Shown here: positions 1 to 53,519 of the stretch, piece by piece
How positions within the stretch are numbered: the stretch's first letter is position 1
How the letters are laid out: every line of letters starts with the position of its first letter
Source: a bacterium
GTDB lineage: Bacteria > SAR324 > NAC60-12
Assembly (NCBI GenBank): GCA_965233585.1
Contig: CBDDTI010000523.1
Span: forward strand, 1 to 56,613
Direction: 5' to 3'
Length of the DNA stretch: 56,613 nt
The notes under the pieces: model-generated
The model's input: the letters and a program-made list of their open reading frames with translations, nothing else
What the model was told of the DNA's origin: nothing
Databases searched by the model: none
Position numbers and translations under genes: made by a program

Positions 1-333
1 ATGGCGTTGGCGAAGTTGTTGCCGCTGTCGATGAAGGCCGCAGTGGTCAAGCTCCCCAGTCAAACCGGGACGTACACGCTGTAGTCTCGCACTTGACTGG
101 GTTGGAGGTTGATCTCCGCAACTTGAGTGCCGGGGTGGTCATCGCTTCAAAACAGGACAGAGCATGAATAAACACTTCCTTGAGCAGGATCGGTAAAAGG
201 TAGGGATTCATAATTTTTTTTTATTTTCAGGGGGGCGAGTCCGGTGCGAAAAACGACAGTAGGCCGGACCCGTTGGTCTCCTGTCATTGTCCTTGTGGGA
301 GTTTCAGCATTTGATAACGAGAGGCATGTTGTG
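1..333 (-). pseudogene. LTR retrotransposon gag-pol junction and aspartic protease fragment (same family as the 4199, 9464, 33635 and 55515 elements)
   Basis: Minus strand near 1-90 reads DYSVYVPV*LGSLTTAAFIDSGNNFANA, with a protease DSG motif and an in-frame stop. It is homologous to 52050-52140. Bases 235-290 match the family's gag-end stem/pseudoknot. Confidence 0.7.
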
Positions 334-4198: not shown

Positions 4199-4652
4199 TG
4201 AAGCGAAAAGCCCAAGGCTCCCTGAGATCTGATTCCAGATGTACCGTTCTACTTTCTTCCCATCTCTATTGTACATAACTCTCTCTTTCTGTGACTACGA
4301 TTGCACCCATTATACCGTATGTAATTAAATCAGTTGATTCATAGACAATGAATAGAGCAGACGTGTTTCAACCCTGACAGAAATCTCTTAGAATTCGTCT
4401 ACTCATTAGTGATTCGTTAGCATCTTCTTGAAGGATACGATTAGTTCGGAAACCTTCTCATTTGAGATCAGCTTGTCAAAGATCCTCTGGCTGTAGTCAA
4501 TCCTTTCAGGCACGAGCCGGAAAGGCCTGCCTCTTTCGACGTTTCGGGAATTTGTTCACATCGTCTTTTCTGACGATCCTCCTCATTCGGAAACTTCAAG
4601 GCCGGACTTGACTACACCACGGAACCGACCAGGAAAGGTCCGGTCCGGTTCA
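4199..4652 (+). repeat. 5' LTR of an env-family element (TGAA...TTCA)
   Basis: Starts TGAAGCGAAAAGCCCAAG, ends CCGGTCCGGTTCA, and is followed by PBS TGGTGGCAGCG at 4655-4665. Homologous to LTR 33635-34168. Confidence 0.85.
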
Positions 4653-6174
4653 ACTGGTGGCAGCGTTGTTCTCCTCCCTTTTGGGGGGGGGCGGAGTACA
4701 GGGTGTACCCCGTCACCGGACATGCCACTGCACGATCACTGCTACCAAAAGAATAAGTATCGTTCATTTCATTTTGTCCAACAATTTGCTTAGAATTTAG
4801 GTTTCGTTCCGTCCATTTTGTCCCAAAATTTTGTTGAATCGCTCGGTCTCATTCATTTCGTTTTAGTCAAATACCAGTTAGTCGCCTCCATGGCCTAACG
4901 GCCTAAGAGGAGGTAGAGGACCCGGCTCAGAATGATTCAGGAATGTCGCAATCAAGGTAATCATCATCATCATCCTCATCCTCATCATCGTCAGGTCGGA
5001 ATCGGCCTGATCAGCATTCATTCAGTCAGAAAATCGTAGTAGAAATAGTAGAAGAAAAGGTGTTTTGGGCTCCGAGCGGTAGAGGCCGGAGTCAGGTTCG
5101 CCAGCACCAAGGGGTCTGGGTTCCTCTACTGAAGAGACACCGGAGAGGATAATCTCAACGTGCTTGGGCTCTGAGTGGTAGAGGCCGGAGTCAGGTTTGC
5201 CAGTATCAAGAGGTATGGGTTCCTTTACTGAAAAGGCACAGGCCAGCGCGGGCAAGTCAGTGTGAGGGCCCCGGTGATGGGGTCGGGAACGCCAATGTCA
5301 AGGGGTTGGGTTCCTTACGGTAAGCACGCAATTCGGAGTACGTTGGGGCCTCGATACTGTGAAGGACGAGGTCAGGGTCCATCATATCCCACGATGGGTT
5401 GGATGCCTTTGCCTGTAGGTGCGAGGCTGGGGGTCCCCCGGGGACAAGGGGACAAAGACGAGCCTTCTGGATTCGCGAGTTTAGCGGCCTCTATCCCAAC
5501 GTGGACCCAGCAGTTGGTGATAAAAAAGGCTAGGGATGTGAGGATTCACATATGGGTGCAAATTGATAGCAGGAAAAGGGTTGTAAAAGTGTTAAATTCG
5601 CATCCTGTTGCAATAGCCACAGGAAAGGAGTCATAAAATGCAAAAATTCACACACTGCTGCAATTAGCAACGAGTAACATCTGCTGGATAATCCCTCTTG
5701 GGGGGTCCTGAGCTCGCGAACATCAGAGGAGACCGCTTCAACCACAGTCGATGACAGAGTTGTGTTGCCGGGAACGCGCTGGGGGTTATCAAATTTAGGA
5801 GATATAAAGTAATTAAAGAAACCATAAAAGGGGGGAAGTTCCTCCGCTTCCTGTTATCATCGCAGACACAGTTCCGCATTTACTTTGAAAGCGACAAAAC
5901 TGATATCAAATCATTCTGTTCTCAACCTCTACCTCGACAACTACACCTCGAAATCTTTTCACCACTTGGGAAGATTTGTGTTCACTCTTGATTCCAACTG
6001 TTAGAAATCCAGACTTTGAATTTTAAGCATCAGGTCTCAGGTAAGCCTTGGTCATTTTGGTTCAGCAGTAAGGCCACCACTGCATTTCATCGAAATTCCG
6101 ATAAGGAATAACAGGATTCACCGTTATTACCTTGCCAGGAAGTCTTGTTAACCTTTATCTCCTACCACTATAGT

Positions 6175-6543
6175 ATGGCTACCAATGACAACGTTTCCAC
6201 TGATGTTACTATGGAGTCCTTGGCCAATGGGATGCAAACCCTCTCCACAGGGATGCAATCTATCAGGGCCGAACTTACCGCGCTGCAGAATCGTGAGGGC
6301 ATACAAAACCTCTCGCTCGACGAACGAGGACGGGAGCGCCCGTATCGGCCTTTCCAAGGTGCCCCTGGACCCCATAACACGAAGGTCCAATACTTCTCGA
6401 ACCTTCCGGGGGAGAATTTTCTAGCCTGGCGATCGCAATTCCAAGTCATCGCCAACTACCATCGCTGGTCCGATAAAGAGGCAAAGCAACTCATGTATGT
6501 GTACATGAAGGGCACCGCCCTTGATTCGGTCATGGACATTCCC
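6175..6543 (+). pseudogene. gag: Truncated Gag N-terminus
   Basis: MATNDNVSTDVTMESL...YFSNLPGENFLAWRSQFQVIANYHRWSDKEAKQLMYVYMKGTALDSVMDI, closely similar to the gag at 53108-53519. Confidence 0.8.
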
Positions 6544-9463
6544 CAAGGATTGGTCGTATTGGAGGGGTGTTTGTCGAACATCCCTAGCAATATAACATCG
6601 GCCAGTGGTGTAGTCATTGCATTGTGACCGGATCTCTTCATCGCCACTGTCAAGAATCTCTCCAGGTTCATAGTCCCATTCCATTCCGTAGTAGAAGTGG
6701 TAGTGCCGGCTGGAGTGATTGAAACCGGAGGAGTCAGAGGCAATTCACTTCGCCTATCCGGTACAGTCCCTGCTGTAGCCCCCTCTGTAGTCATGGATGC
6801 ATCTGTCATGTTGACATCGGTAACATCCGTTATAGTGGGTGATGAGGTGAAGGGAATGGTTACAACTTGTTGTCCATCAGAGGAAATGGTGATTTGAAGA
6901 TTCGGCCTGTTTGTCGCAGCTGCCTTAGTCTTTAATGCCTTTCGGGCAATTTGAATAACACTAGACATCTTGCTACTGGTTTCTCAGTAACCGGTTCATC
7001 CTTGACAGGAGGTTGTAATTCCTGCCCAAGCTCGGCTTCCAGTTCGGCTACCCAATCTGAACCCTCATGATAAGGTTCGTCCTTGACACAAGCAGAAGGA
7101 GGCTCCTGGGGGGATTCCATCAAGGAAGCGACTGTGGTTGCCCTGTATGATCAAGGTCGATCACGAGGTCACCAGGAGGGGTGGTCAACACCTCTGGCTT
7201 TGGTTCTTGAGCAGAATGAGGAAATTCAGAGAGAAAGGATCCTCATTGTGGTCATCTCCCATCATCAGGATGTGTGAATCCATCATGGAAACTGTATTCT
7301 CTTTACTCTCGTTCTTGCAGAAAACATCTGCATCGCTGTCGTCCGACTGCTCCGAGTCTTGCTCCGAATCGGAACTGGACAAATCTTTGTCTATCTTTGC
7401 CAAGATTGACCGAAACAAACGCCTATTGGCCCTTGAATTCCCTGCAAAGGGTTTACTTTTTTTCGTTGGTGCACCGGGCCGTGCTTTGTGCTGAGCGCTG
7501 TTCTTTTTGGTGTCCCCAACCTTCAAGTATGGGTGCTGTATGAAACACTCCTTATTTGAATGATTGCTGACCTATGGACTGAACAGGTATCCTTGCGGAT
7601 AAATCCTTTTTTCCCCGTCGACATTTCCATGATGTCAGTGTCTTGTTCCTCCACTAAGGATTGGATATTGTTTTCTTTCCGCTTAGGGGATACTATCGGG
7701 TTAGCATGGTACACAGCAGCTTTGTAGATAGCGGATCTACTCCTGACGATTTGTTGATAAGGATATAATGCTGCTGTATGCGCCAGGACAACGGTGACTG
7801 CAGATCGGAATGTTGTGGGTAGCGGCGGTGAACTGAGACGAATCTTTAGAGGTTTGCTTAATAGACCTGAAATAAACTTTTGTTTTAGAAACGGTGAAGT
7901 GTCCACTTTTTCCAAGGGATAAGCTCTTTTGAAAAGGTGTTCTAACTGATAGGCATAATCCTGTATGGATACATCCTCTTTTTGAGTCAAGCTTTCAAAA
8001 AGGGAAGCCGAAACCTCCTAGTTTCCCGATGCGTTAAAGATCTGATCCATCTCTTTCAAGAGATTTTTCAAATTGGTCATATCGACCTGACCAGATAAAT
8101 GTTTGGTCATCTCTGCGTCTTTATCCTGCATCAAATACAGGGCCATTTCAAAAGCTTCTTGCTCTGTGGGCTTGAAAATGTTAACTCCGTTGAGGAATGT
8201 AGTTACACATGTGGGAAATGTGGAAAGGTTACTCCCATCAAAGGATTGATACTTTGCACCCTGTATTTTATCTTGTGCCGCGTCTTCAGCAGTAGGAGAA
8301 AATCGCACTATAAAGTGTCCAAATGTTTCGCCCATATTTTTTGCAACTGGAGCAGGATTAGTCGCTATACGGGCAACTGGTACTGCCTCTGCTGCAGGTG
8401 CAGTTGGTGCTGCTCTCATTTCTGCCGCCTTTAGGTGTGCGCAGAAGATGTGGTCCATAATCGGACGTAGCTGTAGAATGTTTTTCGAAGCATCAATTTT
8501 AGTGGCTTTAATGTCGGCAATGAGGCTAGTGATCTCACTTGCTGGTGGAGTAACTCGGAACTTTTCCTTAAGCTTTTCAATCTCTTGATTGATTGCGGCA
8601 TCGGAGCCACCAGAAGGATTAGCTGTTGCCATTTGGTGATAATGACAAATATAATAATAGATTTGGAACGTACCCCGGAGACAGTAGCTGCCACCACAAA
8701 TGTAAGGACAATATCAATCGGCCTGGATTCCCTGAAGATGGAATAAGTACCGGTTGGAGAAATAAATCGGTTAGATTATCCAATCAATACAAAAGGTGAC
8801 TTCTATTGTCTGTAGAAATCGAGTTCCTGTAACAGCGATTATTCGCACAAGCGAATAGTCTGAAAACTCAAAGAGTACTGACTATAAGAGTCAGTTATTT
8901 ATTAGAGGAAAAATACTGGGGTTATCTTAACAATGTATTTTCCTTAGCTGAGATAGATTGTGATATCATATAACATTCTATGGAAATGCATTAAAGAATA
9001 TCCATGATAAATATATATGTTGCAAGATGAACAAAGAAGGATATCACTAGATTCTTCAAGTTGGTCTTGAAGCTTGAATTCTTTATTGTCTCACTAACAC
9101 TATCACTTAATCTCTTGATGTGCAGGAAACGTACTGGGTACGTTCATTGAAAGGAGACTTCCTCGGTCCCTTCATAATAGTGTAGTTGGCTGAAGCCCAG
9201 CAAACCCCTTGTTTCCTTTGTTTCACTCAATATGATATTTGTGAACAAGTGTCTTCAAACAACTCTTTCAATGAATGCAGGAGAGGAATTGGATGTGCTA
9301 GATCGCAATTATGTACAAACAATGATGGAAATGGGAAGTTGGCCCCATAAATACTGTGCATTTGAGGGAAGTTAGCATCCACAACCTTACCCACCCTCAT
9401 TTATCTATGGTAAAACTTCCATTTCCATTTAAGCTCCACAATGAACCCCAGATTTGAAGATAG
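6544..9463 (-). mobile_element. Second LTR retroelement fragment (partial LTR 8701-9463, PBS, disrupted gag)
   Basis: Minus strand reads ...CCTTACA TTTG TGGTGGCAGC (PBS at 8687-8696). Gag-like ORFs 8018-8632 and 7523-8017 are separated by one in-frame TAG and contain LTQKEDVSIQDYAYQLEHLFKRAYP...FISGL. No pol recognised. Confidence 0.7.
7523..8632 (-). pseudogene. gag: Retrotransposon Gag-like, interrupted by a stop at 8018-8020
   Basis: Capsid-like motifs YQSFDGS and Q..D.SIQDYAYQLEHLF..AYP; a CxxH zinc-binding remnant near the end. Confidence 0.65.
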
Positions 9464-9948: not shown

Positions 9949-10762
9949 TCAACGGTTCCGCTTCATCACGTCTCCGATGGGGCCCTTCGGGAAGATGTCA
10001 CCGGGAGACCTCGAGGCGTCGGCAGGTTCATGTTGCGGTGGTCCGACGAGGTTGGCAGCGACTGACGGGTTGATGGGGATGGTTGAGGGCGTCCGGGCAT
10101 CGGCTGCGGGAGGTGTTGCTCCCGCTGGTGGATCGAGGAGGAGAGAGGTTCGTTTGGGGGCGATCCTCTCTGCGGATCCTTGAGTCCGAGCCAGGTATAG
10201 GGTCTCTTGCGGAGGTCCGACGGATGGTCTCCGGCAATCTGGGTCTGCATAAAGAGCCCACAGGTTGTTGCTGTACATGGAGGATGATTTGGCAGGGAGC
10301 GGCGGGTAGACGTTCGAAACAGCCTGGTTGCGTCGCGGAAGCGGAGGGCCTTCGATCTCATTGATGGCCAAATACTCATGAGGGGCATTATTCGAAGGGC
10401 CTCAAGTCGTCTCCGCAGTGGAAGGACGGGCGACCTGTTGTTTGAATTGCCTCCATTGCCGGTAGAACCTCATGGGGAAGACGTTCTGCGCGGGCCGAGT
10501 CCCCACAGGAGGTTAGGTCCAAAACCGTGTTCTTGGTACAAGACCCGCAGCGAGAACACCGTGGTGAGCATACATCGTCCTATGACATAAAGGTAATAGA
10601 GACCTATGAAGATACTAACCAGCTTTCCCCATTTTTCCAGCCAGCTCCACCAGCCGCCAAAGAGGAGATTTCGCCAGTCTGCAGTTGCAGCAATACTGTC
10701 GGGGAACAAGTCCAGCAGCCCGAGGACGTGGTCGTTTTCGGGTCATAAGTTGTGGACCTTGT
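9949..10762 (-). pseudogene. env: C-terminal fragment of the envelope glycoprotein (TM and cytoplasmic tail), frameshifted
   Basis: ADWRNLLFGGWWSWLEKWGKLVSIFIGLYYLYV...EHGFGPNLLWGLGP and FPKGPIG closely match the env at 41180-41890. Cut at about 10762. Confidence 0.9.
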
Positions 10763-11345
10763 AGAGAAATGTACCTACATCAGGCTCTTTCGAGCTTGAT
10801 GTAGGCACATTTCTTCTCAAAACACTCTCAAAACACCTTAAAACAGTCTAAAACGGGCTTTTAACCATCCGTTTACGCATGAAAACCATCTTAAAGCGCT
10901 CTCAAACCACCTTGATGGCATCTACATTGAGCCTGTTGCAGGCTCAATCGAGCCTGTTTTCGTCTGTAATCGGCCTGCAACCGGCTTGTTTTCGTCTGCA
11001 ATCGGCTTGCAACAGGCTCGATCTGTAATCGGCCTGCAACCGGCTTGTTTTCGTCTGCAATCGGCTTGCAACCGGCTCGATCGAGTTTTCGTCTGCAATC
11101 GGCTTGCAAGCCGATTACAGGCTCGATCGAGCCTGTTGCAAGCCGATTACAGGCTCAATCGAGCCTGTTGCAAGCCGATTACAGGCTCAATCGAGCCTGT
11201 TGCAAGCCGATTACAGGCTCAAGAGCCTGTTGCAAGCCGATTACAGGCTCAATCGAGCCTGTTGCAAGCCGATTACAGGCTCAATCGAGCCTGTTGCAAG
11301 CCGATTGCAGACGAAAACAAGCCGGTTACAGGCTTGTTGCAACAT
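10763..11345. repeat. AG-start hairpin plus fold-back tandem array; candidate Polinton left terminus or an independent element
   Basis: Starts AGAGAAATGTACCTACATC with a ~23-bp hairpin at about 10765-10813. Forward 53-bp-type units flip orientation at palindrome AATCGGCTTGCAAGCCGATT (about 11097-11116), followed by 32-bp units. Confidence 0.75.
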
Positions 11346-29899: not shown

Positions 29900-30225
29900 T
29901 GGTCACTGATTGTCGATGCAACGTGCATCATTTAATCTCAGTTTAATACTTAAATCAATGAAAATTTTATGATCATGATATTTCAAGTTTTTTAAATTCC
30001 TTGGACACGTGCTTGGTTGACAATGCAATGTGCATCATCTAATCTTTGTTAAATACTTCAATCAACGGAAAATTTATGTTCATGTCATTTTGAGTTTTTA
30101 AAATTCCTTGAACACGTGCTTGGTTGACAATGCAATGTACATCATCTAATCTCCGTTAAATACTTCAATCAACGGAAAATTTATGTTCGTGTCATTTTGA
30201 GTTTTTAAATTTCTTGATCACAAGC
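29900..30225. repeat. About three copies of a 107-bp tandem repeat in a divergent intergenic region
   Basis: ACACGTGCTTGGTTGACAATGCAATG at 30005 and 30112, plus a degenerate copy from about 29900. Confidence 0.85.
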
Positions 30226-30432
30226 TTAGTTTCTTAATTGAAATTTTATTTCAATGATCGTATCGAACACTTGCCCTCACACATGGACGGTGTTGGGTCC
30301 TTTAGGGCGTCAACTAGCGCATGTTGGTGGTAGACATTAAACTTTAAAAAGGTTTAAAAGAATGGAATTTTTATTTTGAATGTCAGTATAAATTTGAGTT
30401 TAGAGTAAATAACCCGCATTTAAGAAAAGAAC

Positions 30433-33167: not shown

Positions 33168-33634
33168 GACGGGTTTGGGTGTTGATGTCAATTAAACAAA
33201 ATTTTAATTTAGAATGAGGATTTCAAATTATGGAATTTGTGATTTTTATTTATATAATAAAAATTTCGGTCAAAACGCGCTCTTCTACATATTTATTATA
33301 AATAAGAAACGATTTTGACTGTTTATACTATGCATATAATATTGTACATTTAAATGCACATTGCGCGCAAAATCAATGAATTGTTTGCATTGACAGCATT
33401 GCATGAATTGAATGTAAAGGAACGAAAGACACGCGCTAAAAAAAAAAATAAGACATTGTACGTCAAATCAATGAATTGTTTGTTTTATTACGTAAAAAAG
33501 AATCATTGGTATTATTATTAACATTCACATAATATATTTGATAATGATATTCAAATAAAGCAAATAAACCAAGTGTCATACATAAAAAGCACAAACAACT
33601 CAATAGCCCAGGCGAAACATCATCTTCTACATAA

Positions 33635-34168
33635 TGAACCGAAAGCCCAAGACTGGGTGTTAGCCTGGACTGTCTACCTCGTGATAATTATCTCTTTGCT
33701 GCCTCTGTGTACTGTGCTCTATCTCTGTGTAAATGTTTGTTTCTCTCCTCCCCTTTTGCCGGTGGAGGAGTCTTTCACTTTCTCATGAATACTGTCATAT
33801 AGTGTAAATAAATGAGTTGATTCACGGACAGGAAACAGGAAAGACGTGTCTCAACAGAAGGAATTGACTTTCAGAATTCTTTCATAATTCTTACAATTAT
33901 CTTGTGATTGTTTGGTGATTGTTTTGTGACTAAATCCTCTTTCATCAGGGATACGATTCATTCGGAAACCTTTGATTGAGATCGAGTTACTCAAGGTGTA
34001 GCCGATTCCTCCGTGCTTAAGCACACTTAAGGCCACGGAGGACCGGCCTTCGCAGTAGGTCCCGGATTACATTCTCTTTGTCCTTTCAGCCAAGTTCACT
34101 CATCCGGAACCCATAAGGCCGGACTCGTCTACGCCCCAGAACCAACCGGAAAGGGCCGGTTCGGTTCA
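33635..34168 (+). repeat. 5' LTR (534 bp)
   Basis: TG...CA ends with a 9-bp inverted repeat; AATAAA inside; directly repeated at 42200. Confidence 0.95.
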
Positions 34169-34170
34169 TA

Positions 34171-34181
34171 TGGTGGCAGCG
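34171..34181 (+). promoter_or_regulatory. Primer binding site, tRNA-Leu type
   Basis: TGGTGGCAGCG, 2 nt after the LTR, is complementary to the tRNA-Leu 3' end CGCTGCCACCA; same PBS at 4655 and 55233-55243. Confidence 0.8.
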
Positions 34182-36426
34182 CTGTGCCCTTCTCTCTTTT
34201 TCCGGGGGGAGGTGTACAGGGCGTACCCCGTCACCGGAGAACGCCTCTGCACGCCCAGGCTACCAACCAAAAGACTAAGTATCGTTTGATGATCAGTCTT
34301 AATTCCGGTAATCCGTCCAATTTGTTCAAATTTCGTGTTTAAAATTCGTAATTGTTCCAAATGATCAAATCGTGATCCGAATAATCCGTTCCGTCGTTTC
34401 AATTCTAACCGAATCATCCATTCATTTTATTCCAAATTCCATTGCCATTAGGTACCATTTCGTCCTTTTTCGTATAAGTTTGTCCAGAATTAAATTGTTT
34501 AGTTGTTTCAGGTGCTCAAAAGTCACCTCCATGGCCTAACGGCCTAAGAGGAGGTAGAGGAACCGGTGCAGAATGATACAGGAATGTTGCAACAAGGCTC
34601 ATCATCATCATCATCATCAATCCCAATCCCATCATCATCCTTATCCCAATCCACCATCATCAGCGTCCCCATCATCATCATCAACCCAATCATCATCCTT
34701 CTCCCAACCACCATCATCATCCCCATCATCATCATCGTTACATCATCATCATCATCAACAGCAACATTCAGATAAGATTCAATTAAGGTTAAAGAATTAG
34801 TCAGGGTAGAAGGATTAGAAAGAATTAGTCAGAGTAGAGGGATTAGTAGGAATTAGTAGGACGCTGGGGCTCCGAGCCAACAAAGCCGGGGTCGGGTCAC
34901 CAATGCCAAGAGGTTTGGGGCTCCTTGCCGATTAGTAGAGCGTCTGGCAGGGTAACTTAAGGATGTTGGGCTCTGAGCAGGAGGCTAGAGCGCCGGAGAG
35001 CATCGCCCAGCGCGGGCATTAAGTGTGAGGGCCCTGGAAGAGGGTTGGGATCACCGATGTCATGAGGGTCGGGTTCCTTACGGTAAGCACGCAACTCTAG
35101 TGTGTTGGGGTCTCGAGGGAGCGAGATCAGGGTCCAGCTTCTCCCAGACAGGAGCTGGATGCCTTGCCTGTAGGCGCGAGGCTGTGGCAGGTCCCGGGAG
35201 GGGACGAAGTCAAGGACTCCATGAATTCCCCAGCTTGGCAGCCTCTGTCCAAGAGCAGATGGTGGCATCACATGTGGCCCGGAATTGCAGCCAGTTAGAG
35301 TAATAAAAGTGTGAATTTCGCATCCTGTCATAAAACCACAGGAAGGAGTTAATGTGCACAAATGTGTCCCACAATGGTAAAATTATGAGATTTGCATCCT
35401 GTTGTAAAATCACAGGGTAATGATTGTCATAAGGAAATTTCACACACAATTGCAACTGGCCACATTGTGACATCTGCTGGACAATTCCCTTTTGGGGGGA
35501 CTCCAAGCCCGGGAACATCGGGAGAGAAGCTTCACCACAGTCGTGAGAGAGTTGTTTTGACCAAACCAAACGCGCTGGGGAGTTATCAGTGTACTTCAGT
35601 GTACGTAGCAGAGGCTACCTGGGGAATTAGACTAGGGAATTAGCGGTTAACACACGTGGGGAATTATTGGCCATAACAGCCATGTGGCCAGGAAATTGTG
35701 ATATCAGAATTAACAAGGGGTGGAGAAATTCACAGGAGGATAAAATGTTAAAATAAGACAGTAAAGAAACCGCGGGAAATGGAATTCACATGACAATAAA
35801 ATTCAGTTAGTTCACATGGTAATCAAAAATCCTCAGTCAAGATAATGCCGGTCATAAAGTTGTCATGATAACGGAAATCCCATTGAGGTGGGAACTTTGA
35901 TTAATCACTCACATGTGAAAATTAGAAAGAAACCACATGGGAGGAAGTCCCATACCCCTTCTATTATCATCTGGACAGCAGTCCAACACCACCTTGGAGC
36001 ACAAACCTGGTATCAAATCATTCTGTATTCGACCTCTACCTCGACAGCACCTTCCAACAATTAAAAGTTGTCTTCCAAAATCTCTGACTGTGAAGTCAAA
36101 TTTCCAAAACTTGTGCAACTCAAATTGATTTCCCAACTTAGGAACTTTCATCAACACGGTAAGCCTTAACCTTAAACAAACTTAAGGGCATTGTCAAGTC
36201 AGAGAATCCAAGGCCCTTGTGTCTCATCTACCAGGGTAGGCCCTTCTGGGCTGCGGCTTGACCGCCGGTGAAGTCTTGGTCTTTTGGTTCAGCCTCAAGC
36301 CACGAACTTCAATTCGTACGAATCTCGTAGGGAATAAGGGAACCCTACCCTTATTAGTGGCCAGTCACCACGACCTGGCTTTGTAAACCAAAGATAATCT
36401 AACACTGTTCTTGTAATACTGTAGAA

Positions 36427-37139
36427 ATGCCGGGTACCGGGCGATCACGACGTCACCCCTACTTGGACGGGGCCCCCTACTTCTACATCGGGGAAAACTT
36501 CCGCGCCTGGAGGGCCCAGTTTGACGCTCTCCACGACATGAGCGGTGGCCTGACCGCACCGCCCGACGGTACGCCAACGCGTGCATGCAGGACTCCGCCC
36601 AAGATGCTATCCGGGATATCACCCTTGCCGGGCCTCGGAGTTGTGCCGAGATGTTGGATGCTTATGAGGAACGATTCCAACTCCTCGACGACCTGGTCCG
36701 GATCCGCATGCGGGAAGAAGGACTTCTCCGAGCACCCCGCCACCTACGTGGACCCGGCGGGAAGAGAAAAAGCCGCCTGAAACCCCGGGCGAAACGAGGA
36801 ATCATGACCCCGGTAGCTCGCCCACTTGCCCCGTGGGATACCGGCAATGGCGTTCGGAGGGAGACTGCCAGGGGATCGTGGGAGCCTTCCACCGCCGAAG
36901 AAGTCCAGAGAGAGATCATCCACTCCCGGGTACGCGCTCTACTGCGAGACCAACCCCAGCCTAGTGTTGAGGACTTGCAGATCTTCACTCGTATGCCGTC
37001 ACAATCCTCGTCGTCAGGGTCACCCCGGGTCCTCCCGCTCACCTCCTCTGCAGGGTCGTCCGCGAGTGACACACCACACCATCCCTGGGCCGGACCCAGC
37101 CACCGGAGCGACGAACCGGATTTTCAGTCAGGACAGTAG
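36427..37139 (+). pseudogene. gag: Mini-Gag (capsid N-terminal part only) with one frameshift near 36530
   Basis: YFYIGENFRAWRAQFDAL / RHERWPDRTARRYANACMQDSAQDAIRDI aligns with the family gag; no zinc knuckle; ends DFQSGQ* like the family's DFQKGQ*. Confidence 0.75.
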
Positions 37140-37181
37140 ATCTAAGGGTCCGTCCCTACTGTCCTTTCCCTCACCGGACCC
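37118..37181 (+). promoter_or_regulatory. Putative -1 ribosomal frameshift signal (G_GAT_TTT plus H-type pseudoknot)
   Basis: Slippery heptamer 37118-37124, 6-nt spacer, stem 1 GGACAGTAG/CTACTGTCC, stem 2 GGGTCCG/CGGACCC; the -1 frame is open to 41893. Confidence 0.7.
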
Positions 37182-37327
37182 GTCCCCCCGAGCGTAATTC
37201 CCCGAGGGAGATTACTGCTCAGAGAGCCCTGCCGACTTCCAATGATCGCCTTCCCTTACAGGACCGACCTAGCCTAACCCCCGCAAGAAGAACGGGTGGT
37301 CAAGTAGAGCCACCACCCGAGCCCCCG

Positions 37328-40300
37328 ATGGACCCAGAGTGTTGCCCATACGTGGACGTGAGTGTGGGGGTGAAGCTGTTTGACCATCGTGGGGGTTCGC
37401 AGAAGTCCCGGCTTCTCCACTTCGTGAAGTCGCGCGCGGACCATCATTGTGTCCCTGACCACGACCAATCGCTGCCGGCCGCTTCCAAACCCTGCCTTCG
37501 TCGGACGCCCAGGAGGACCTGGGAGGAGTCTCATGTCCGGGCATTGATCCAAGCGGCCCCGCTGACCCAAGTTCCTTCTCCAGGAGCCGTAAGAAGGCCT
37601 CAGCCTTTTGTTCCGCCTACCGCCCGGAATAGTCACTCCACCGGTCCCCGCATACAACACCTTAACATGATCCGGAAATTAAGGTCACCAGGGCCCCAAG
37701 ATTACCGGGCCCCTCGTCGTCGGAACTCCGCAGAAGAAGAGCTGGGAGACATCCCCTTGGAGCCCTCACGCGCTCCAACCTATTGGCTCCGGGTGGATCC
37801 TGGTCATTACGGCTGCTACCTGTACGGACGGAAGAGATTCATGGAGTGTGCGGGAACAATACGAAGATCTCGTCCACGCGAGAAAGAATTAGAGGCATCC
37901 GACAGTGCTTCCCCAGTCTCTACTCTCTCCCCCAGTGCCAGAGACGGAATCAATTCGAAGACCCTTCTGATCATGAATCCGATTCAGTGTGCCAGTATTA
38001 TAATTGTGACCTTGTGCCTCTGCCTGACACGTAGACCTGACCACAATACAACCGTGTCTGCCTGCAATCTGGCAGTAAATGATCATGAACTTAGAAGAAT
38101 ATTGACGTGCGGTTACCACCAGTGTAGTCTCGGCCCGAGCACTCCAGAAAGGAGCGCGCCTTGTCTTGTGCCCTGTTACCCCCGATATGAAATTCCTCTC
38201 GGGATTCGGGAAGTGAACCTTCTTCCCTTCCTGGGTGCCCCGGTGGTGTGCGCTGTTCCCTTTAGTGAAGTTGTTCCCTCTTGTGTAGAACTAGCAGATG
38301 TCTACTCCTCCCTTGTGTCCAGCCCGCCGTTCGCAGTTCTGGGGACCGAATTGGACATCTTTTGCCGAAGGGTGGATTCACCCCGCCGCACCGAGGTGAA
38401 GGGGAAGATCCCCGCTCCAGGAGCAAACCGACCAGGTGTAAGAGGGTCAAAGAAAGGGATCCCCACGAGAGGACTCAACTCGCTCCCCCCAACGATGTTA
38501 GGGAACCGGATGATTGCGGAGGACTTTCCCACGTCAGTAACGAAGCGGACCTCTCCTTCCATTGGCAGGGTCGACGCAGACGTCCACATCTCTCTCTGTG
38601 AATGTGACCGGGTGAGAAGAATCCCCGCTGGAGTAAGAAGGATAAATCAATCCTGGACAGCGGGGACGAAAAGAGTGGTCCCCTTTAGAAGATGGATTCA
38701 ACCATGTGTCGCTGGTGCAACCGGGTCGAAGGAAGTGACCCCCGTTGGGAGGGTAAACCGATCGTGTACTACTCCCGGTAACACCGAGTGTGAAGGAGAG
38801 TGCGAGGAGGCCAGCATCCTCGGTCTCCCCTTTAGGTTCGAGAGTCGCTGTCCGAAACGAGATGCCGTGAGAAGAGCCAGGGTGTCTTCAAACTTTCCAG
38901 GAACTGGGACGAGGAGAGGGCGCAACCGGTGCCCCGGGAGAGGAGTCTCTCCGCCTTCCTCAGGACTCGGGGCGTGGTCAGATCGCCACGGTGGGGATCG
39001 CGTCGCAAACTTCATACCCCCTTGCTGTGATTGGGGTCCTATTATTGTTGTAGCAGTTGAACAAAGTGATCTCGTAAGTCCCCTTCTGTATCATCGGTCT
39101 CATCTGTTCTTTCTTCTCCCAGATCTCACCGTGACCAATCTGTTGCGTTGGAAAGACATAGCCCTGCTTCATCGATCCACGTTAGGTTGGGAGAAACAAG
39201 CGCTAGGGACTCCACGAGGATCAGATACCGTTCCGATCTCGCCCGGGACGGTCATCAAAGCTACGACCTTACTCCAGTTCGCGTCTTCAGGTGCCCCACC
39301 GTTGTCCGCTCCCCTCACATCCTCACCCACGGGCGATATGGACGTTCGAGCCAGCTGTTTGGCCCTTCTCCTGGGATTAACCCTCACTGCGTCAACCAGC
39401 CACTTCCATCGGAGTGCCACCCTGGGGTCTTTGGTGGGACTCGTCCCTACTGTCTCCACCAACCGTTTCACCCTCCAGAATGGGTATGGCACTGTGGAAG
39501 CACGGTTTCACCTCACCGCGTACGACTGCTCTGACCCTTCAGAAGTGCAGGCGTACAGCAGTATCCCGGCCAGCCATTGCAGCACCCGGGCTACCCCCGT
39601 AAAGAAGGATCGACCCACGCGGTTCCAGCTCCTGCAAAAGGAAAGGAAAAGGTATATCAACGCCTATGTCTGCTCTCTTTATAGGACTGACATTCGGTAT
39701 AACTGCGGCGTGTATGGACACCCAGAACTGGACCCTATGCACTGGTCCTTCTTGATTCCGCAACGGGTGACGGTGGAACAGTGCCTGGAATGGCTCCGCA
39801 CTCGGACCTATCGGCCGGCGTATCATTCCACCATGATGCACGGGAAGGAGTTCACGCAGCCCGTCCTGATCGACGAACCCACTTATATCACCTACCTCGT
39901 GTACGGGCGAACTTTTCTTCAGGCTCCTGCCTTGCCCACTGACCTCGTGACGGACATCGCCTGCCAGGGAGAATGGTACGAATATCAGCCTGACAAGCCG
40001 CAGAACCACATCGTGGCCTTCTACGATGAACTACACCTTCAGACTGTGACCTTGGTTGTCGAGGAGGAGAAAGTCATCGACAAGGGTCGTCAGCTCTCTC
40101 TGCCTTGCCCCTGGAACGATGGACACTGCCATGCAGAAGGACTGACCTACCTGTGGAATGTCACCGGGCCTGAATACTGCCCCGTTGCAGTTGTCAAGGA
40201 GTTCTTGGGACACCGGCTGCACGCCAACGTGTCCCAGTCCGGCGATTCCTATGATTCACATCATGCGGAGGCCATCGTGAGTGCGGAGACTGAGGAGAAG

Positions 40301-41893
40301 ATCCGGATCCAACCGACTGGCCCCGTGAGTCAGTGCGGGCGAGTTGTGACGTCCACTAACATTGAGGACATGTTCCTCTTCCCGATCCTCGAAACTGATG
40401 ACAAGGGCCGTGTGCTGACGGACAACCGGGACCAGATCTTTGAACGCCGGATTCACCCAGGAGAAGTTGACCTCCGGAAGTATATCGCCAATCGGGATGA
40501 GTACCTGTATTATGACATCACTTCCCAGGCTGAGCGCGAATTCGATGCCATCCTCCACCACGACTGCTTGCGGCGCCAGGATGAAGCACGGAAGGCTCAT
40601 TTCTTTGAGCACGGGCTTCCAGGATACCAACCCTTCCTCCTACAGGATGGTGCCTTCTCCACCCGGTCAGGAGAAACGAATTACAGGTATCAATGTCTGC
40701 CCCGAACTGTGCACCCTGTCTCTGCTTCTAGGTGCTACAATAAGCTGCCTGTGGTTCTCCGGCTACCTCAACACCTTGCCGCTGGTGTCACGCTCAACTT
40801 CTCTGCCAGCCACACGTACTTCCTGGACCCAGACTCACGCTTGCTGTCCCCGATTGCCTCGGAGGTCCCCTGCTCTGCCCTTTTCCCGGCCATCTACCAG
40901 ACGCACCAAGGATGGATCGCTGTCACGCCGGACATCCACCAGGCCCCAGCGCCTAAGCCCCTGCCGGTCCAGCCGCCCCATCGGACAGAAGATGTGTTTC
41001 GTGAACCGGATTACAACGAAGGAGGCCTCTATCAATCTGACACCCTGGATGCCATGCAGGACTTCCTGTTGACGCCTCTCCTCCGTGAAGCAGTGACTTA
41101 CAAGCTGGCGCACCAGGTCCACAATCTTCGCCCGGAGCGCGAGTACGTCTTGGGGCCGCTGGATGTGTTCCCAGTAGATGCGGCTGCTGCGGCCGACTGG
41201 AGGAACCTTCTCTTCGGAGGCTGGTGGAGCTGGTTGGAGAAGTGGGGGAAAGTAGCCAGCATCTGCATTGGGGCCTACTACCTGTACGTCGCGGCTCGTT
41301 GGATTGTCACCACCCTTTTTTCTTTAAAGGTGCTATACGACGAGCATGGGTTTGGACCCAATCTTCTGTGGGGACTCGGACCAGGGCAAGATGTCTTCCC
41401 CATGCGGTTCTACCGCCGGTGGAGGCGTTTTAAACAACATCTCTCCTCAAATGGGAAAGGAGAGACTCCACGAGTCCCACCTCGACCACTTCCTCACGAA
41501 TACCTCATGATGGAGGAAGTCCGGGCCCCGACTCTGCCGCGGCGCAACCTTGGTCGGCCTGGGGTGTATCCTGACCTCCCGCACACCCCAACGGAGGCCG
41601 ACGCCGTGAAAAGACCATCTTCCGATCAATATGCGAAGCCCGGATGTGTGACAGAACGAGCACCCTGTCTGTCGGAATCAGATTCCGAGGTGTCACCTCC
41701 TCAGACCCCGCGGCCGAACCCTGTGGTCCCAGAAGTTCGGCTAGAACGTATGATACCTCCGGGAGCCGCTCCTGCGGCCGAAAGCGAGGGATTGGTCGGT
41801 CTTCCCAACCCCAGGAGGGAGGGTGCCTTCCGACCTGTGGAGAATACTTTCCCTCAAGGACCCATCGGCGCTGTGCTGCAGCCCCGTCCCTGA
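37328..41893 (+). CDS. env: Long ORF; C-terminal 851 aa (from ATG 39338) is a chuvirus-G/gB-like class III envelope glycoprotein
   Basis: Signal peptide MDVRASCLALLLGLTLTAS; LTAYDC...C...FQLLQ...C...R...YNCG..GH cysteine pattern of chuvirus-type glycoproteins; GGLY motif; C-terminal TM and Pro-rich tail. Confidence 0.85.
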   Translation: MDPECCPYVDVSVGVKLFDHRGGSQKSRLLHFVKSRADHHCVPDHDQSLPAASKPCLRRTPRRTWEESHVRALIQAAPLTQVPSPGAVRRPQPFVPPTARNSHSTGPRIQHLNMIRKLRSPGPQDYRAPRRRNSAEEELGDIPLEPSRAPTYWLRVDPGHYGCYLYGRKRFMECAGTIRRSRPREKELEASDSASPVSTLSPSARDGINSKTLLIMNPIQCASIIIVTLCLCLTRRPDHNTTVSACNLAVNDHELRRILTCGYHQCSLGPSTPERSAPCLVPCYPRYEIPLGIREVNLLPFLGAPVVCAVPFSEVVPSCVELADVYSSLVSSPPFAVLGTELDIFCRRVDSPRRTEVKGKIPAPGANRPGVRGSKKGIPTRGLNSLPPTMLGNRMIAEDFPTSVTKRTSPSIGRVDADVHISLCECDRVRRIPAGVRRINQSWTAGTKRVVPFRRWIQPCVAGATGSKEVTPVGRVNRSCTTPGNTECEGECEEASILGLPFRFESRCPKRDAVRRARVSSNFPGTGTRRGRNRCPGRGVSPPSSGLGAWSDRHGGDRVANFIPPCCDWGPIIVVAVEQSDLVSPLLYHRSHLFFLLPDLTVTNLLRWKDIALLHRSTLGWEKQALGTPRGSDTVPISPGTVIKATTLLQFASSGAPPLSAPLTSSPTGDMDVRASCLALLLGLTLTASTSHFHRSATLGSLVGLVPTVSTNRFTLQNGYGTVEARFHLTAYDCSDPSEVQAYSSIPASHCSTRATPVKKDRPTRFQLLQKERKRYINAYVCSLYRTDIRYNCGVYGHPELDPMHWSFLIPQRVTVEQCLEWLRTRTYRPAYHSTMMHGKEFTQPVLIDEPTYITYLVYGRTFLQAPALPTDLVTDIACQGEWYEYQPDKPQNHIVAFYDELHLQTVTLVVEEEKVIDKGRQLSLPCPWNDGHCHAEGLTYLWNVTGPEYCPVAVVKEFLGHRLHANVSQSGDSYDSHHAEAIVSAETEEKIRIQPTGPVSQCGRVVTSTNIEDMFLFPILETDDKGRVLTDNRDQIFERRIHPGEVDLRKYIANRDEYLYYDITSQAEREFDAILHHDCLRRQDEARKAHFFEHGLPGYQPFLLQDGAFSTRSGETNYRYQCLPRTVHPVSASRCYNKLPVVLRLPQHLAAGVTLNFSASHTYFLDPDSRLLSPIASEVPCSALFPAIYQTHQGWIAVTPDIHQAPAPKPLPVQPPHRTEDVFREPDYNEGGLYQSDTLDAMQDFLLTPLLREAVTYKLAHQVHNLRPEREYVLGPLDVFPVDAAAAADWRNLLFGGWWSWLEKWGKVASICIGAYYLYVAARWIVTTLFSLKVLYDEHGFGPNLLWGLGPGQDVFPMRFYRRWRRFKQHLSSNGKGETPRVPPRPLPHEYLMMEEVRAPTLPRRNLGRPGVYPDLPHTPTEADAVKRPSSDQYAKPGCVTERAPCLSESDSEVSPPQTPRPNPVVPEVRLERMIPPGAAPAAESEGLVGLPNPRREGAFRPVENTFPQGPIGAVLQPRP

Positions 41894-42199
41894 GAGCTGC
41901 TCCAGGACCGAAGGGAGCAAGAGGAGGAATTGTGGAGAAAAGATGAAAAGCCAGATGGCCCTCAGACTTTACCAATTCGAGAGCTACCTTCTCCTTGTCT
42001 CAGTGTGAAGAGACCATTCCGGGAAAACATTGTGTCAAGACCTGTAGTGATCCGAAGAAATGTAGAGTGAAAATTTTGCGAAAAAGGACGCTGAAATTGA
42101 TGTATTATGTTCTGGTGTCACGAGAAAGACCTCATCGGAAAATTTGACTGGGAAATGGTGTGAGTTCGTCCAGGTTGGCCTCACTCAAGGAGGGGCAAA

Positions 42200-42721
42200 T
42201 GAACCGAAAGCCCAAGACTGGGTGTTAGCCTGGACTGTCTACCTCGTGATAATTATCTCTTTGCTGCCTCTGTGTACTGTGCTCTATCTCTGTGTAAATG
42301 TTTGTTTCTCTCCTCCCCTTTTGCCGGTGGAGGAGTCTTTCACTTTCTCATGAATACTGTCATATAGTGTAAATAAATGAGTTGATTCACGGACAGGAAA
42401 CAGGAAAGACGTGTCTCAACAGAAGGAATTGACTTTCAGAATTCTTTCATAATTCTTACAATTATCTTGTGATTGTTTGGTGATTGTTTTGTGACTAAAT
42501 CCTCTTTCATCAGGGATACGATTCATTCGGAAACCTTTGATTGAGATCGAGTTACTCAAGGTGTAGCCGATTCCTCCGTGCTTAAGCACAACTTAAGGCC
42601 ACGGAGGACCGGCCTTCGCAGTAGGTCCCGGATTTCATTCTCTTTGTTCTTTCAGCCAAGTTCACTCATCCGGAACCCATAAGGCCGGACTCGTCTACGC
42701 CCCAGAACCAACCGGAAAGGG
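42200..42721 (+). repeat. 3' LTR missing its last 13 bp
   Basis: Near-identical to 33635-34155; lacks the terminal CCGGTTCGGTTCA. Confidence 0.95.
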
Positions 42722-42739
42722 GATAACCATTATGTTTTA

Positions 42740-43190
42740 TAAACATTAAAGATATGTTCATCAAAATAACCTACAAAAACTGGAAATAAGAAAGCTAACG
42801 TCAACAGAACTCTTAACATGTCAATTGGCCACTTTTTTCCAAATGTCAAAGCTAACGTAATCATTGAAAACTATTAATGTTTAGCAAACATTAAAGCTAA
42901 CGTCATCAAAGTAACCTACAAAAACTGGAATTAAGAAAGCTAATGTAAAAAGAACTTTCAAGAAGTCAATTAGCTACTTTTTTCAAATGTTGAAGCTAAC
43001 ATCAACAGAACTATTAAGAAGTCGATTGGCTACTTTTTTTCAAATGTCAAAGCTAACGTAATCATTGGCAATATTTTTGCAAATATCAATGCTAACGCAA
43101 TCACTGATAACTAACATGTTTATGGTACATCATATAACATTATATAACATCAATGTTTGGTAAACATCAATGCTAACATCATCAAGATAA
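42740..43190. repeat. Degenerate AT-rich tandem repeats (GCTAACGT/GCTAACAT core)
   Basis: AACCTACAAAAACTGGAA..AAGAAAGCTAA at about 42768 and 42913; repeated CAAATGTCAAAGCTAACGTAATCATTG. Confidence 0.7.
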
Positions 43191-51624: not shown

Positions 51625-52331
51625 TCAGGTGTGCTTCCGCAAGTGGACCGCTGGGAGTGTACTGTTGGCGCTGAACAGGGGCATCGGAAACATGTAAGGT
51701 GCAGACTCCTGGGGAGGGTCGAGGAGGTGGTAGTCGGGACGGACAACTAGGTTGGCAGGGGTGGCCACATTGGAACGTCTTTCCCGCAGACTTGCAAGAT
51801 GCCCTTCTAGTGGATCTGGTCGATGCCCATTTGGTCGAGGAAGTGACCGCAGATGTTGACTGGGTGTACTAGTCCCTGGAGCACTAGGGTGCGGATGCGA
51901 AACTTGGCCGGATGTTGCCGGTTGGAGGTTGATTCTGGGTGCCTCACTCAACACTTTCATCCTCTTACCTGCAGCGGCAGTTCCTACCAAGAGCTGAGGT
52001 GCCGGTTCCAGCTGGGAGATGGTGATGCCCAACGCGGTCATTTTCTGAGGCGAGATGACATTGGTGAAGGTGTTGCGGCTGTTGATGAAGTCCGCGGTGG
52101 TCAGGTTCCCCAATCTGACAGGAACGTAGGCGCTGTAATCCTGTGCCTAGATGGGTTGGAGATTGATCTCCGCGACTTGGGTCCGTTTGGTAGTCATAGC
52201 TACAACATAGGACAAGGTATGAGAGGACGGCCTTGGAAACAGATAAGACAAGATGTGACGGTTTAATATTATTGAATTTTCAGGTGGTCGGGTCAGGTGC
52301 GAAAAGGGGCAGTAGGGTCGGACCCTCTTGT

Positions 52332-53519
52332 CTACTGCCCTTCTGGAAAATCCAATTCATCTTCCAAAAGGTCCGGGGCTTGAAGCTCTTCATAAAGAGT
52401 GGCTACAGTCACCTCGTCTAGGGTGGCGAGATCGACATCCGCGAGAAGATCTTGGCTCTCAGGGGGTCCACCGGATCCGCGTCATCCACGATTGCAGCAA
52501 TCCTCCTCTTCTCATAACTCTCAGCGACAACCGGCAGTGTCTGGGTAGCCTCCACGAACTTTACCTATTTCTTGCAGGCGGCCGTGGAAGCGGTTTGGCT
52601 GGTCCTTCCACCGGCGGCAGCCTGCGGACGGTTGGTTCGTCGGCTCCCCTTATCTGCTCATTGTTTCAGGAAGTCCTTGAGCATGGTGGGGCATCACTCC
52701 TTGAAGTGGCCCTCCTCATCGCAGTAGTAGCACTTGGGACGGGAGGTGGGACTCTTCCCCGCGTCCGTACGTCAACCTTTCAGGGCTGCAATGAAACTGG
52801 TGTCACCCGGCACCGGGGCCTTAAGTCCGCCCCGGGCATGAGTCGCCAGGTCCACCAGGATGAAGGACGTCTCCTTGTTGGTGATATGTAACACCTTGGC
52901 ATATGTAGGAGGCTTTCTCCGGCAGACATAATTCTGGACTACCCAGTTGTTCAGGGCTGAGATGAATCTCTCGATGAGGAATACCTTATTTTGCATGTTT
53001 GCATCGGGGTACACCAGGTGATACAACACCCTCATGTGGGCATGTAGCTTTTGTATGGACTCATTCGGCAGTTGGACCACACATGCGAATTGGGCCCTCA
53101 GTCAGCCTCAGAGGGAGTCACTCTCCAGTAGGAATCGGTTCTGGTACTCGACAAGCACTTGTCCAACGGTGTCTGGTCCCATAAGATGGATGTCCATGAC
53201 AGGCTCCAAGGCTGTACCTTTCATGTAGGCGTAGACGAGTTGTTTGGCCTCTTCATCGGTCCATTGATGATAGTCGGTGATCACCTGGAATTGTGACCGC
53301 CCAGCCAAGAAATTTTTGCCAGGCAGATTGGCGAAATATTGAATCTTGGTGTTGTGAGGCTTAGAAGGAGGACGGTGGTAATGGGACATGTTCGTCCAAC
53401 GAGAGGTTCTGTAGACTCTCTTGGGTCTGCAGGGCTGCGAGGTCGGCCTTTAAATAATGAATCTCAGCAACCAGAGATTCCATGGTTACATCAGTGGACA
53501 GATTGTTCTTGGTGGGCAT
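52332..53519 (-). pseudogene. gag: Gag with frameshifts and stops
   Basis: MPTKNNLSTDVTMESL; YFANLPGKNFLAGRSQFQVI; QLPNESIQKLHAHMRVLYHLVYP; CCHC knuckle. Confidence 0.8.

Follow-up and report, generated by a model that had tools for sequence, protein, structure and literature searches.

Introduction

How is an envelope gene (env) expressed from a retroelement in which no polymerase can be recognized, and why does the reading frame that leads into it stay open? The question is raised by contig CBDDTI010000523.1 (GenBank assembly GCA_965233585.1, GTDB lineage Bacteria; SAR324; NAC60-12), a stretch of 56,613 nucleotides that was analysed over its full length and is called the window here. It carries a long terminal repeat (LTR) element in which the end of gag is followed, in the -1 frame, by 740 codons without a stop (37118-39337, here named X) and then, in the same frame, by env. 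An earlier note, written by a model from the letters and a list of open reading frames (ORFs), had offered two explanations: that an open frame is maintained so that frameshifting can deliver env, or that the insert is a new protein.

We lean, with modest confidence, towards the first: the frame of X would be kept open so that ribosomes shifted to the -1 frame reach env. Support came from the architecture of relatives, from deletion derivatives that stay in frame, and from the openness of X in diverged copies. The second explanation was not favoured, as X has no predicted structure, is poorly recognized by a language model, and shows neutral-like replacements, with tryptophan and cysteine somewhat over-kept. 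The features discussed below are collected in Table 1.

Results

The open frame upstream of env

Between 37070 and 41893 the -1 frame contains no stop, which amounts to 1607 codons from stop to stop; counted from the slip site (37118-41893), the 1591 codons of the earlier note were confirmed. Within X, 0 stops occur in this frame against 40, 25, 22, 23, and 24 in the other five, and 2000 first-order Markov simulations of X gave a mean of 25.5 stops with a minimum of 11. No other frame is nearly open, and the 11 ORFs of 69-154 aa found in the other frames and strands of X had no Pfam match.

X resembles no protein in the collections searched. Neither X nor its thirds matched a Pfam family up to an expectation value (E) of 10, except for one match at chance level (TP1, E 0.27). 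No match to PDB sequences was obtained, and the ESM Atlas contained no usable neighbour, the recognition score of 807 being within the range of shuffled sequences. AlphaFold2, run with 33 sequences, returned a mean predicted local distance difference test score (pLDDT) of 39.4, 0 residues at 70 or above, and no helix or strand. GC content at codon positions 1/2/3 is flat in X (.59/.56/.55) compared to env (.63/.45/.65). X has no tandem repeats at the DNA level and, by tblastx, no similarity to the rest of the window beyond the frameshift region.

Relatives and family architecture

A phmmer scan of 1.84 billion protein representatives with X as query (E<=1e-3) returned 31 representatives with 24-83% identity to X and no Pfam domain besides the env N-terminus. 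The architecture of the family is seen in the relatives P0040, P0041, and P0042, proteins of 2518-2555 aa on contigs of 10.3-11.0 kb. Each encodes in a single ORF, in this order, a protease (PR, motif DSG), RVT_1, RT_RNaseH, Integrase_H2C2, rve, a linker, a signal peptide, and the fusion glycoprotein domain PF24664. The linker between integrase (IN) and env is rich in Pro, Ser, and Thr and ~420-470 aa long. Shorter layouts also occur: P0039 consists of PR, linker, and env in frame, with reverse transcriptase (RT) to IN gone; P0038 and P0061 of the IN C-terminus (GPW), linker, and env; and P0034-P0037 of X and env. P0001 and P0034 align over 1344 residues with 0 gaps, and the clusters of the relatives comprise 9-31 member sequences. 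Judged from these predicted proteins, the Pfam domains mark the family as gypsy-type; pol and env normally share one frame in it, and env remains in frame in the deletion derivatives.

The autonomous members are 94-95% identical to one another in RT-RNaseH, 92-94% in IN, and 89-90% in env, and the mismatch scores of RT, IN, and env (mean BLOSUM62 score of the replaced residues) are positive. Identity drops to 45-55% ahead of PR and to 63-67% in the IN-env linker, and the mismatch scores of both stretches lie between -0.5 and -0.9.

Retention of the open frame

Retention was counted among proteins found via env alone, which limits selection by the X query, and which cover at least 468 env residues including the N-terminus (n=10). 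In six of them (P0034-P0039) the frame extends upstream of env by 162-556 aa and in one (P0043) by 77 aa; the remaining three are taken up in the Discussion. The chance of an extension of at least 160 codons is ~0.004 per ORF, as calculated from the stop rate expected by chance. The earlier note had named stops in this region beside an intact env as the outcome that would speak against it. The counts are mixed and mostly favour retention, 6/10 being extended by at least 160 aa.

Among the X relatives that reach X residue 700, 7/10 run on into env and 3/10 do not. P0006, P0007, P0011, and P0013 contain open stretches homologous to X that align over 510-587 residues with 35-46% identity. Simulated free drift to a nucleotide distance of 0.25-0.35, in comparison, introduced 13-17 stops per 740 codons, and 0/200 runs were stop-free. 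Open-frame retention in the diverged lineages is clear at the level of predicted proteins, despite an undercount of broken copies.

This retention bears on the notion that openness of the frame is meaningless to the element, either because the copy is young, dead, and derived from a source that happened to be open, or because env was domesticated by the host together with a long leader ORF. In favour of this, the two LTRs differ little (99.4% identity), leaving little time for decay, and solo or domesticated chuvirus-type glycoproteins have been proposed in mosquitoes (PMC7642597; this and the other papers cited by PMC number are drawn on in excerpt). We consider this explanation very improbable: the frame is retained in many diverged lineages beyond this copy, the relatives form clusters of 9-31 members, and LTRs, a candidate primer-binding site, and a gag remnant are present.

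Selection on X and on env

In all 15 proteins that contain both parts, env is more conserved than X (X/env identities of 83/98, 40/94, 34/92, 38/87, and 25/77%). X is open in copies with 25-45% identity, the env of which is 69-94% identical. Mismatches in X had a mean BLOSUM62 score of -0.93 and were positive in 18.4% of cases (n=4971). Neutral simulations, in which stops were rejected, indels introduced, and the products realigned alike, gave -0.86 to -0.92 and 19.5-20.4% (n ~9,700-9,900 each), and env mismatches -0.08 and 34.7% (n=2337). By these scores, replacements in X look like neutral codon drift minus stops, and those in env like the replacements of a selected protein.

It is therefore unlikely, in our view, that X is itself a needed, lineage-specific protein, for example an accessory or matrix-like one that is disordered or rich in Cys and is produced as a Gag-X or X-Env precursor. 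Its replacements are indistinguishable from neutral drift, while env is clearly selected; within the same proteins X is up to ~10x more diverged than env; no secondary structure is predicted and no Pfam, PDB, or Atlas match was obtained; and in 7/10 relatives that reach its end in frame X has no stop of its own before env. Such a protein would nevertheless account for the frame being open across diverged copies, for the hydrophobic 19-mer at ORF residues 299-317, which is hydrophobic in the relatives too, and for P0016, in which gag frame and X are joined with no frameshift in between. It would also fit the only hint of constraint in X, the conservation of Trp (0.63) and Cys (0.59) above the neutral range (0.36-0.47), a difference that rests on 8 and 28 query positions in related sequences.

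Predicted frameshift signal at the end of gag

The heptamer G_GAT_TTT, the 6-nt spacer, and the pseudoknot that the earlier note had placed at the end of gag were found at 37118-37181. The gag frame reads CCG GAT TTT CAG TCA GGA CAG TAG across the site. The spacer is thus CAGTCA, the zero-frame stop lies at most 13 nt past the slip site, and the -1 frame is open for only 16 codons upstream of it. In the predicted pseudoknot, stem 1 (9 bp) pairs GGACAGTAG (37131-37139) with CTACTGTCC (37156-37164) and includes the gag stop TAG (37137-37139). Stem 2 (7 bp) pairs the loop segment GGGTCCG (37146-37152) with CGGACCC (37175-37181). Measured against the X_XXY_YYZ rule, TTT_T fits as YYY_Z, whereas GGA does not fit as XXX; the heptamer is kept in 2/3 DNA copies. 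In excerpts of the literature, G_GAU_UUU is the reported site of -1 slippage for umbraviruses, insect flaviviruses, and some toti-like viruses.

The two further copies of this structure agreed in part with what had been claimed for them. At about 52305-52352, the heptamer, both stems, and a compensatory A-U to G-C double change in stem 1 are present; the copy is on the minus strand, spans 52352-52273, and has a 4-nt spacer by alignment. At about 235-290, the stems are kept with one mismatch in stem 1 and one G-U pair; this copy also lies on the minus strand (290-226), and its slip site is lost in a 15-column gap. In the alignment of the three copies, 46/48 cells pair and 2 pairs are changed on both sides, compared to 29-52% pairing in slid controls. 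Stem 1 appears in minimum-free-energy folds, and the frameshift region has no match to an Rfam family.

The peptide encoded across the site adds to this picture. The -1 frame residues G-F-S are kept in P0016, P0021, and P0033, in which the knot-spanning peptide (TVD.RVRPYCPFPHRTRPPE) is the best-conserved part of the -1 frame. Over its 27-30 aa, identity is 89% with P0033 and 80% with P0021, against 24-37% for X overall. P0040-P0042 open with ...CP(L/V)T(H/N)RTRPPE, which corresponds to the peptide encoded across the pseudoknot here (VRPYCPFPHRTRPPE); in these proteins the short form of the peptide is embedded in an otherwise hypervariable stretch. From these comparisons the predicted frameshift signal is retained in the pol-less lineage, and the conservation of the peptide supports it independently.

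In P0016, the gag frame is joined to the X frame upstream of the slip site without a frameshift; by look, this is a natural frame-changing variant.

Relationship of X to pol

The earlier note had reported no catalytic pol motifs in the 740 codons, and this was borne out: Pfam and tblastn with pol of the relatives revealed no PR, RT, RNaseH, or IN in any frame of 37118-39337. The element is therefore a non-autonomous derivative. The GPY/F-like trace WGPIIVV...LLYHRSHL, which the note had read as a trace of pol, did not hold. Its G-P is not kept in the X relatives, where S-P, N-R, or N-L is found, and the segment cannot be aligned to integrase. The true GPW module of the relatives (KLAIPLTGPW in P0040) lies elsewhere and has no counterpart in X.

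The view of X as eroded pol was likewise not supported on alignment to the relatives. A tblastn search with P0038-P0042 against all six frames of 37000-39400 gave a best E of 0.03 outside the first 15 aa, an X profile matched the pol-env proteins at E 0.05-8, and hhalign of four X segments with pol returned E 0.4-0.8 at a probability below 1%. These searches revealed no likeness beyond the first ~27 codons of X, which form a common start with the pol ORF of the relatives (the frameshift-signal peptide). Two resemblances to the linker, TWLTADG ~ YWLRVDPG and a VV...VSP stretch, were dropped since they reached E 0.3-1 and were not collinear.

That X is pol eroded past recognition with its frame kept open, a statement about origin rather than present function, is thus distinctly improbable. 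X does sit in the place of pol behind the same ~27 codons, and a weak likeness can be made out by eye between its PYVDVSVG...FD..GGS and the protease AYVPVKIG...IDSG of the relatives. All three profile and translated searches are non-significant, however, and the G-P is not conserved. A simpler origin, also unproven, would be a PR-to-IN deletion that left two hypervariable segments, the ~95 aa before PR and the ~420 aa linker. The comparison of X with the IN-env linkers by hhalign was not significant (E 0.33-0.47).

Env and its signal peptide

ORF residues 814-1433 match PF24664 (Monjiviricetes_fusion) at E 3e-43 and 148.1 bits (cut-off 27), covering positions 21-588 of the 653 in the profile. 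The N-terminus is hydrophobic, and hydropathy places a transmembrane segment at ORF residues 1395-1413 (~41252-41308). The env is intact and 98% identical to that of P0034. Its AlphaFold2 model (19 sequences) is partly confident, with a mean pLDDT of 43.4, 123 residues at 70 or above, and many secondary-structure elements. In a fold search with it, all 8 PDB matches at E<=1e-3 were class III fusogens, namely gB of herpes simplex virus, baculovirus GP64, and Gp of Dhori virus (a thogotovirus); their E-values range from 1.6e-5 to 9e-4, yet the TM-scores are just 0.09-0.19. By look, P0014 is a natural frame-changing variant that leaves the env frame and re-enters it over ~45 residues.

The signal peptide is where initiation of Env at its own AUG (39338), on a spliced or subgenomic mRNA, has to be considered; the continuity of X would then be an unused inheritance from a pol-env ancestor. 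A methionine stands at the first signal-peptide residue in 16/19 X-env-type sequences, P0048 is a stand-alone env ORF that begins with its own Met and signal peptide, and gag is frame-broken in this copy. Cer1 moreover expresses a 3' ORF from spliced mRNA although it lies in the polyprotein frame (PMC10309623). None of the 4/4 aligned pol-env-type sequences has this methionine, however, so env cannot start there, and P0059 and P0062 lack it too. As an intron or leader, X should also have decayed, but it is open at 25-45% identity where drift would bring 13-17 stops per 740 codons, and its best-kept part in pol-less copies is the frameshift-signal peptide. We assign this explanation a low probability.

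The element and its surroundings

The element stands out by base composition, GC being 0.56-0.58 at 36-42 kb and 0.34-0.37 in the AT-rich flanks. Direct repeats at 33633-34155 and 42198-42721 (524 nt, 99.4% identical) delimit an LTR element that spans 33635-42721 in the window. As the element was taken to be eukaryotic, signals from a scan of its LTR for bacterial promoters and terminators were disregarded. No ORF longer than 104 codons was found on the plus strand of the leader, which contains a low-complexity (CAT)n-like stretch at ~34550-34800. The leader resembles 4582-5939, with 74-90% of nucleotides identical, and tblastx matches the two in every frame. The gag remnant has no Pfam match. 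It shows a capsid-like motif, GENFRAWRAQFDAL, in one frame and continues in the frame that ends at the TAG, with a break near 36538-36545 when compared to the relative at 6112-6627, in which the start of gag looks intact (GENFLAWRSQFQVIANYHRW...). An Rfam scan of the window yielded just two sub-threshold sR2 snoRNA-like matches in the leader, which were taken as chance, and no tRNA genes were found in the window.

Table 1. Features placed in the window, with position, strand, and grounds
Feature	Position	Strand	Grounds
5' LTR, TG...CA, terminal inverted repeat TGAACCGAA / TTCGGTTCA	33635..34168	+	direct repeat; ends read
Candidate primer-binding site, TGG start, 2 nt past the LTR	34171..34188	+	sequence read
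Long leader, no coherent reading frame	34189..36402	+	ORF inspection
gag remnant, ending at TAG 37137-37139	36403..37139	+	ORF reading; gag start of relative
Candidate slippery heptamer G_GAT_TTT	37118..37124	+	sequence read; kept in copy 52352-52346 (-)
Predicted H-type pseudoknot, stem 1 and stem 2	37131..37181	+	pairing, three-copy alignment
X, 740 stop-free codons in the -1 frame, no family, no predicted fold	37118..39337	+	ORF, simulations, searches
Met and env signal peptide MDVRASCLALLLGLTLTAS	39338..39394	+	ORF reading; alignment with relatives
env, chuvirus-type fusion glycoprotein (predicted class III), 851 codons and stop	39338..41893	+	PF24664
Purine-rich tract adjoining the 3' LTR	42187..42199	+	sequence read
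3' LTR, without the last 13 nt present in the 5' LTR	42200..42721	+	repeat alignment; ends read
Related degraded copy: gag end, GGATTTT, pseudoknot 52352-52273, then protease	51702..52385	-	alignment; tblastn with P0040, 55-65% identity
Third related copy: pseudoknot region 226-290 without slip site, then protease FIDSGNN, running off the window	1..290	-	alignment; tblastn
Related env fragment, membrane-proximal part and tail	10294..10763	-	71% nucleotide and 70% amino-acid identity to 41111-41581
Fourth related copy: LTR end, leader, gag start	4508..6627	+	repeat/nucleotide comparison; gag start

Both minus-strand copies belong to the same family, as tblastn with P0040 found their proteases at 55-70% identity and nothing in X. 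The copy at 51625-52146 (-) has FINSRN where the relatives have (Y/F)IDSGN and an in-frame TAG before the motif; these changes are of the G-to-A / C-to-T kind, which suggests decay by transitions. Besides the frameshift signal, the pol-less element and the minus-strand gypsy-type copy have nucleotide similarity at two places only. One comprises the end of the LTR and the candidate primer-binding site (34140-34191 and 55273-55223, 83% identical), and the other is a stretch of ~95 nt located upstream of gag (36266-36360 and 53691-53594, 76%).

The minus strand of 44-55 kb was considered as one BEL/Pao element and rejected as such, since tblastn with P0040 assigns its gag-frameshift-protease part (51.7-53.5 kb) to the gypsy-type family. 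The BEL/Pao-type ORFs at 44256-47973 (-) (Peptidase_A17, Integrase_H2C2, DUF5641) are a separate element, nested or adjacent, between the gypsy-type copy at 51.7-55.3 kb and the X-env element. A 100-nt inverted repeat at 54632-54832, 91% complementary with a single base between its arms, lies within the leader/LTR region of the minus-strand copy.

Other retroelements are present as well. A 679-codon frame at 2071-4110 (-) shows, by eye, two CCHC zinc knuckles, a DTG protease motif, and the start of a reverse transcriptase, and matches no Pfam family at E<=1e-3. At 12995-15841 (-), rve and Chromo domains (integrase core and chromodomain) lie beside a 585-codon ORF without Pfam match, probably a chromovirus-type gypsy element. 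A 494-codon ORF at 19485-20969 (-) has weak matches to a C2H2 zinc finger and a FOXP coiled coil, and a 423-codon ORF at 26775-28046 (-) contains an Endonuclease_7 domain (E 9e-6); both may be host genes or parts of other mobile elements. Tandem arrays are found at 42722-43106 (unit ~145 nt), beginning exactly at the end of the truncated 3' LTR, at 23248-24264 (unit 276 nt), at 29907-30227 (unit 107 nt), and at 482-799 and 10816-11365 (unit ~53 nt). The 53-nt array of 0.5 kb recurs at 10.9-11.4 kb in direct and inverted orientation.

Discussion

Proposed mode of expression

The reading that we favour takes the window element as a pol-deleted, non-autonomous member of a Ty3/gypsy-type, env-carrying LTR family. 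Its env would be no separate gene; it would be the last module of the -1 frame, entered at G_GAU_UUU and the pseudoknot at the end of gag. PR to IN would have been lost here, so that X links the frameshift site to the signal peptide. X would be a translated conduit without a constrained amino-acid sequence or fold, from which selection removes stops and frame changes only, because any break would sever env from the only ribosomes that reach it. On emerging, the signal peptide would target the chain to the endoplasmic reticulum, and signal peptidase would free Env.

Several observations weigh against this reading. Three of the ten proteins found via env have no extension upstream of it (P0044, P0047, and P0048), and P0010, P0017, and P0030 have frameshifted tails before env. 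The protein sets consist of predicted ORFs only, in which broken copies are under-represented. The retention of Trp and Cys in X exceeds that in the neutral simulations. The pseudoknot is plausible and conserved, but not statistically proven from the DNA: covariation among the three DNA copies is not significant (53/500 shuffles match it), and neither are the minimum-free-energy z-scores (-0.68, -0.76, and -0.63), which come from a program that cannot score pseudoknots. The zero frame that leads into the slip site is open for just 204 codons, behind a 2.4-kb leader and with no coherent frame upstream; given the broken gag frame, this insertion may be silent for X-env from genomic RNA. The frequent methionine at the signal peptide hints at independent env initiation, for example at its own AUG on a shorter RNA, and the splicing of the in-frame ORF of Cer1 means that continuity of frame alone is no proof of read-through. 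Finally, frameshifting, the translation of X, the cleavage of the signal peptide, and the dependence on a helper for Gag and Pol are all steps that we infer from sequence.

A wider proposal can be made tentatively, and we hold it to be rather doubtful. In it, the Env of the family would arise solely at the end of a polyprotein fed by frameshifting, behind an internal signal peptide, and pol-less env carriers would have retained only the openness of the polymerase frame, over 2.2 kb. Gag-pol helpers with the same primer-binding region and frameshift signal would be their counterparts in a two-part system, in which the carriers would either provide Env in trans or travel on helper particles. The two places of nucleotide similarity described above are the pattern expected if just the cis-acting sites were shared with a helper.

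If the favoured reading is true, X would be a clean natural case of a long frame held by selection for openness alone, which bears on the use of ORF length and conservation as evidence for a protein. It would also mean that a gypsy-type lineage expresses a captured viral env with no need of splicing, as the last part of a frameshifted polyprotein, and that pol-less env-bearing elements may be partners or parasites of their autonomous relatives. Such relationships matter for understanding how infectious retrotransposons arise and why env genes survive in genomes. For annotation the case is a warning that "proteins" of 1,300-1,600 residues called from such ORFs may be half spacer.

Comparison with known systems

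The closest known layout is that of Atlas virus and its nematode relatives (belpaoviruses, Cer13 group), which encode a single Gag-Pol-Env polyprotein and are BEL/Pao-type with a phlebovirus-like env (PMC9094657). As there, env lies in the ORF of pol in P0040-P0042, and the polyprotein ends in a captured viral fusion glycoprotein. The window element departs from the Atlas layout in having X in the place of pol, in frame with env. Atlas virus has a class II env (phlebovirus Gn-Gc) and gag in the same frame too, whereas the present family has Ty3/gypsy-type Pfam domains, a predicted class III env (PF24664), and a pol-env frame entered by a predicted -1 shift at the gag stop. The excerpted Atlas literature describes no pol-less derivative with a stop-free spacer. 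The literature on pol-env fusion ORFs and pol-less env-bearing elements yielded no description of such a spacer either, which does not imply its absence from print.

LTR retroelements with a captured class III fusogen, Jingchuvirales- or gB-like, are also known from the errantivirus-like, env-carrying Ty3/gypsy elements and from Anakin elements. The chuvirus-type glycoprotein occurs in the mosquito 'Anakin' BEL/Pao elements and beside gypsy POL in several arthropod orders (PMC13524379); from mosquitoes, defective and non-autonomous copies with the glycoprotein have been reported (PMC7642597). In contrast to the present family, with pol and env as one ORF in the relatives and a 740-codon bridge in the pol-less copy, GAG, POL, and ENV are treated as separate ORFs in the work on these elements (PMC13524379, PMC7642597). 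The excerpted main text of PMC13524379 contains no mention of frameshift, fused, single ORF, in-frame, or splic-.

The predicted signal shares with retroviral and retrotransposon gag-pol -1 signals a candidate slip heptamer, the 6-nt spacer, the downstream stem or pseudoknot, and the nearby zero-frame stop; it differs in that the predicted shifted frame leads to a spacer and env and to no polymerase. Cer1 of C. elegans has the CERV ORF downstream of pol, in the polyprotein frame, made from a spliced five-exon mRNA (PMC10309623). It is alike in having a 3' ORF in the place of env and in the polyprotein frame, and different in that CERV is not an envelope protein.

Hypervariable disordered segments of viral polyproteins must stay open and otherwise drift fast. 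X is longer (740 codons) and under no amino-acid constraint detectable by the mismatch scores. The spleen focus-forming virus is pol-deleted, keeps an env-derived gene, and relies on a helper for Gag and Pol.

Single Gag-Pol-Env ORFs are thus already known from Atlas virus. What appears new, as read from sequence, is a pol-env frame entered by a predicted -1 shift in a gypsy-type lineage, together with pol-less derivatives in which a 740-codon bridge seems to be retained as an ORF without detectable selection on its sequence.

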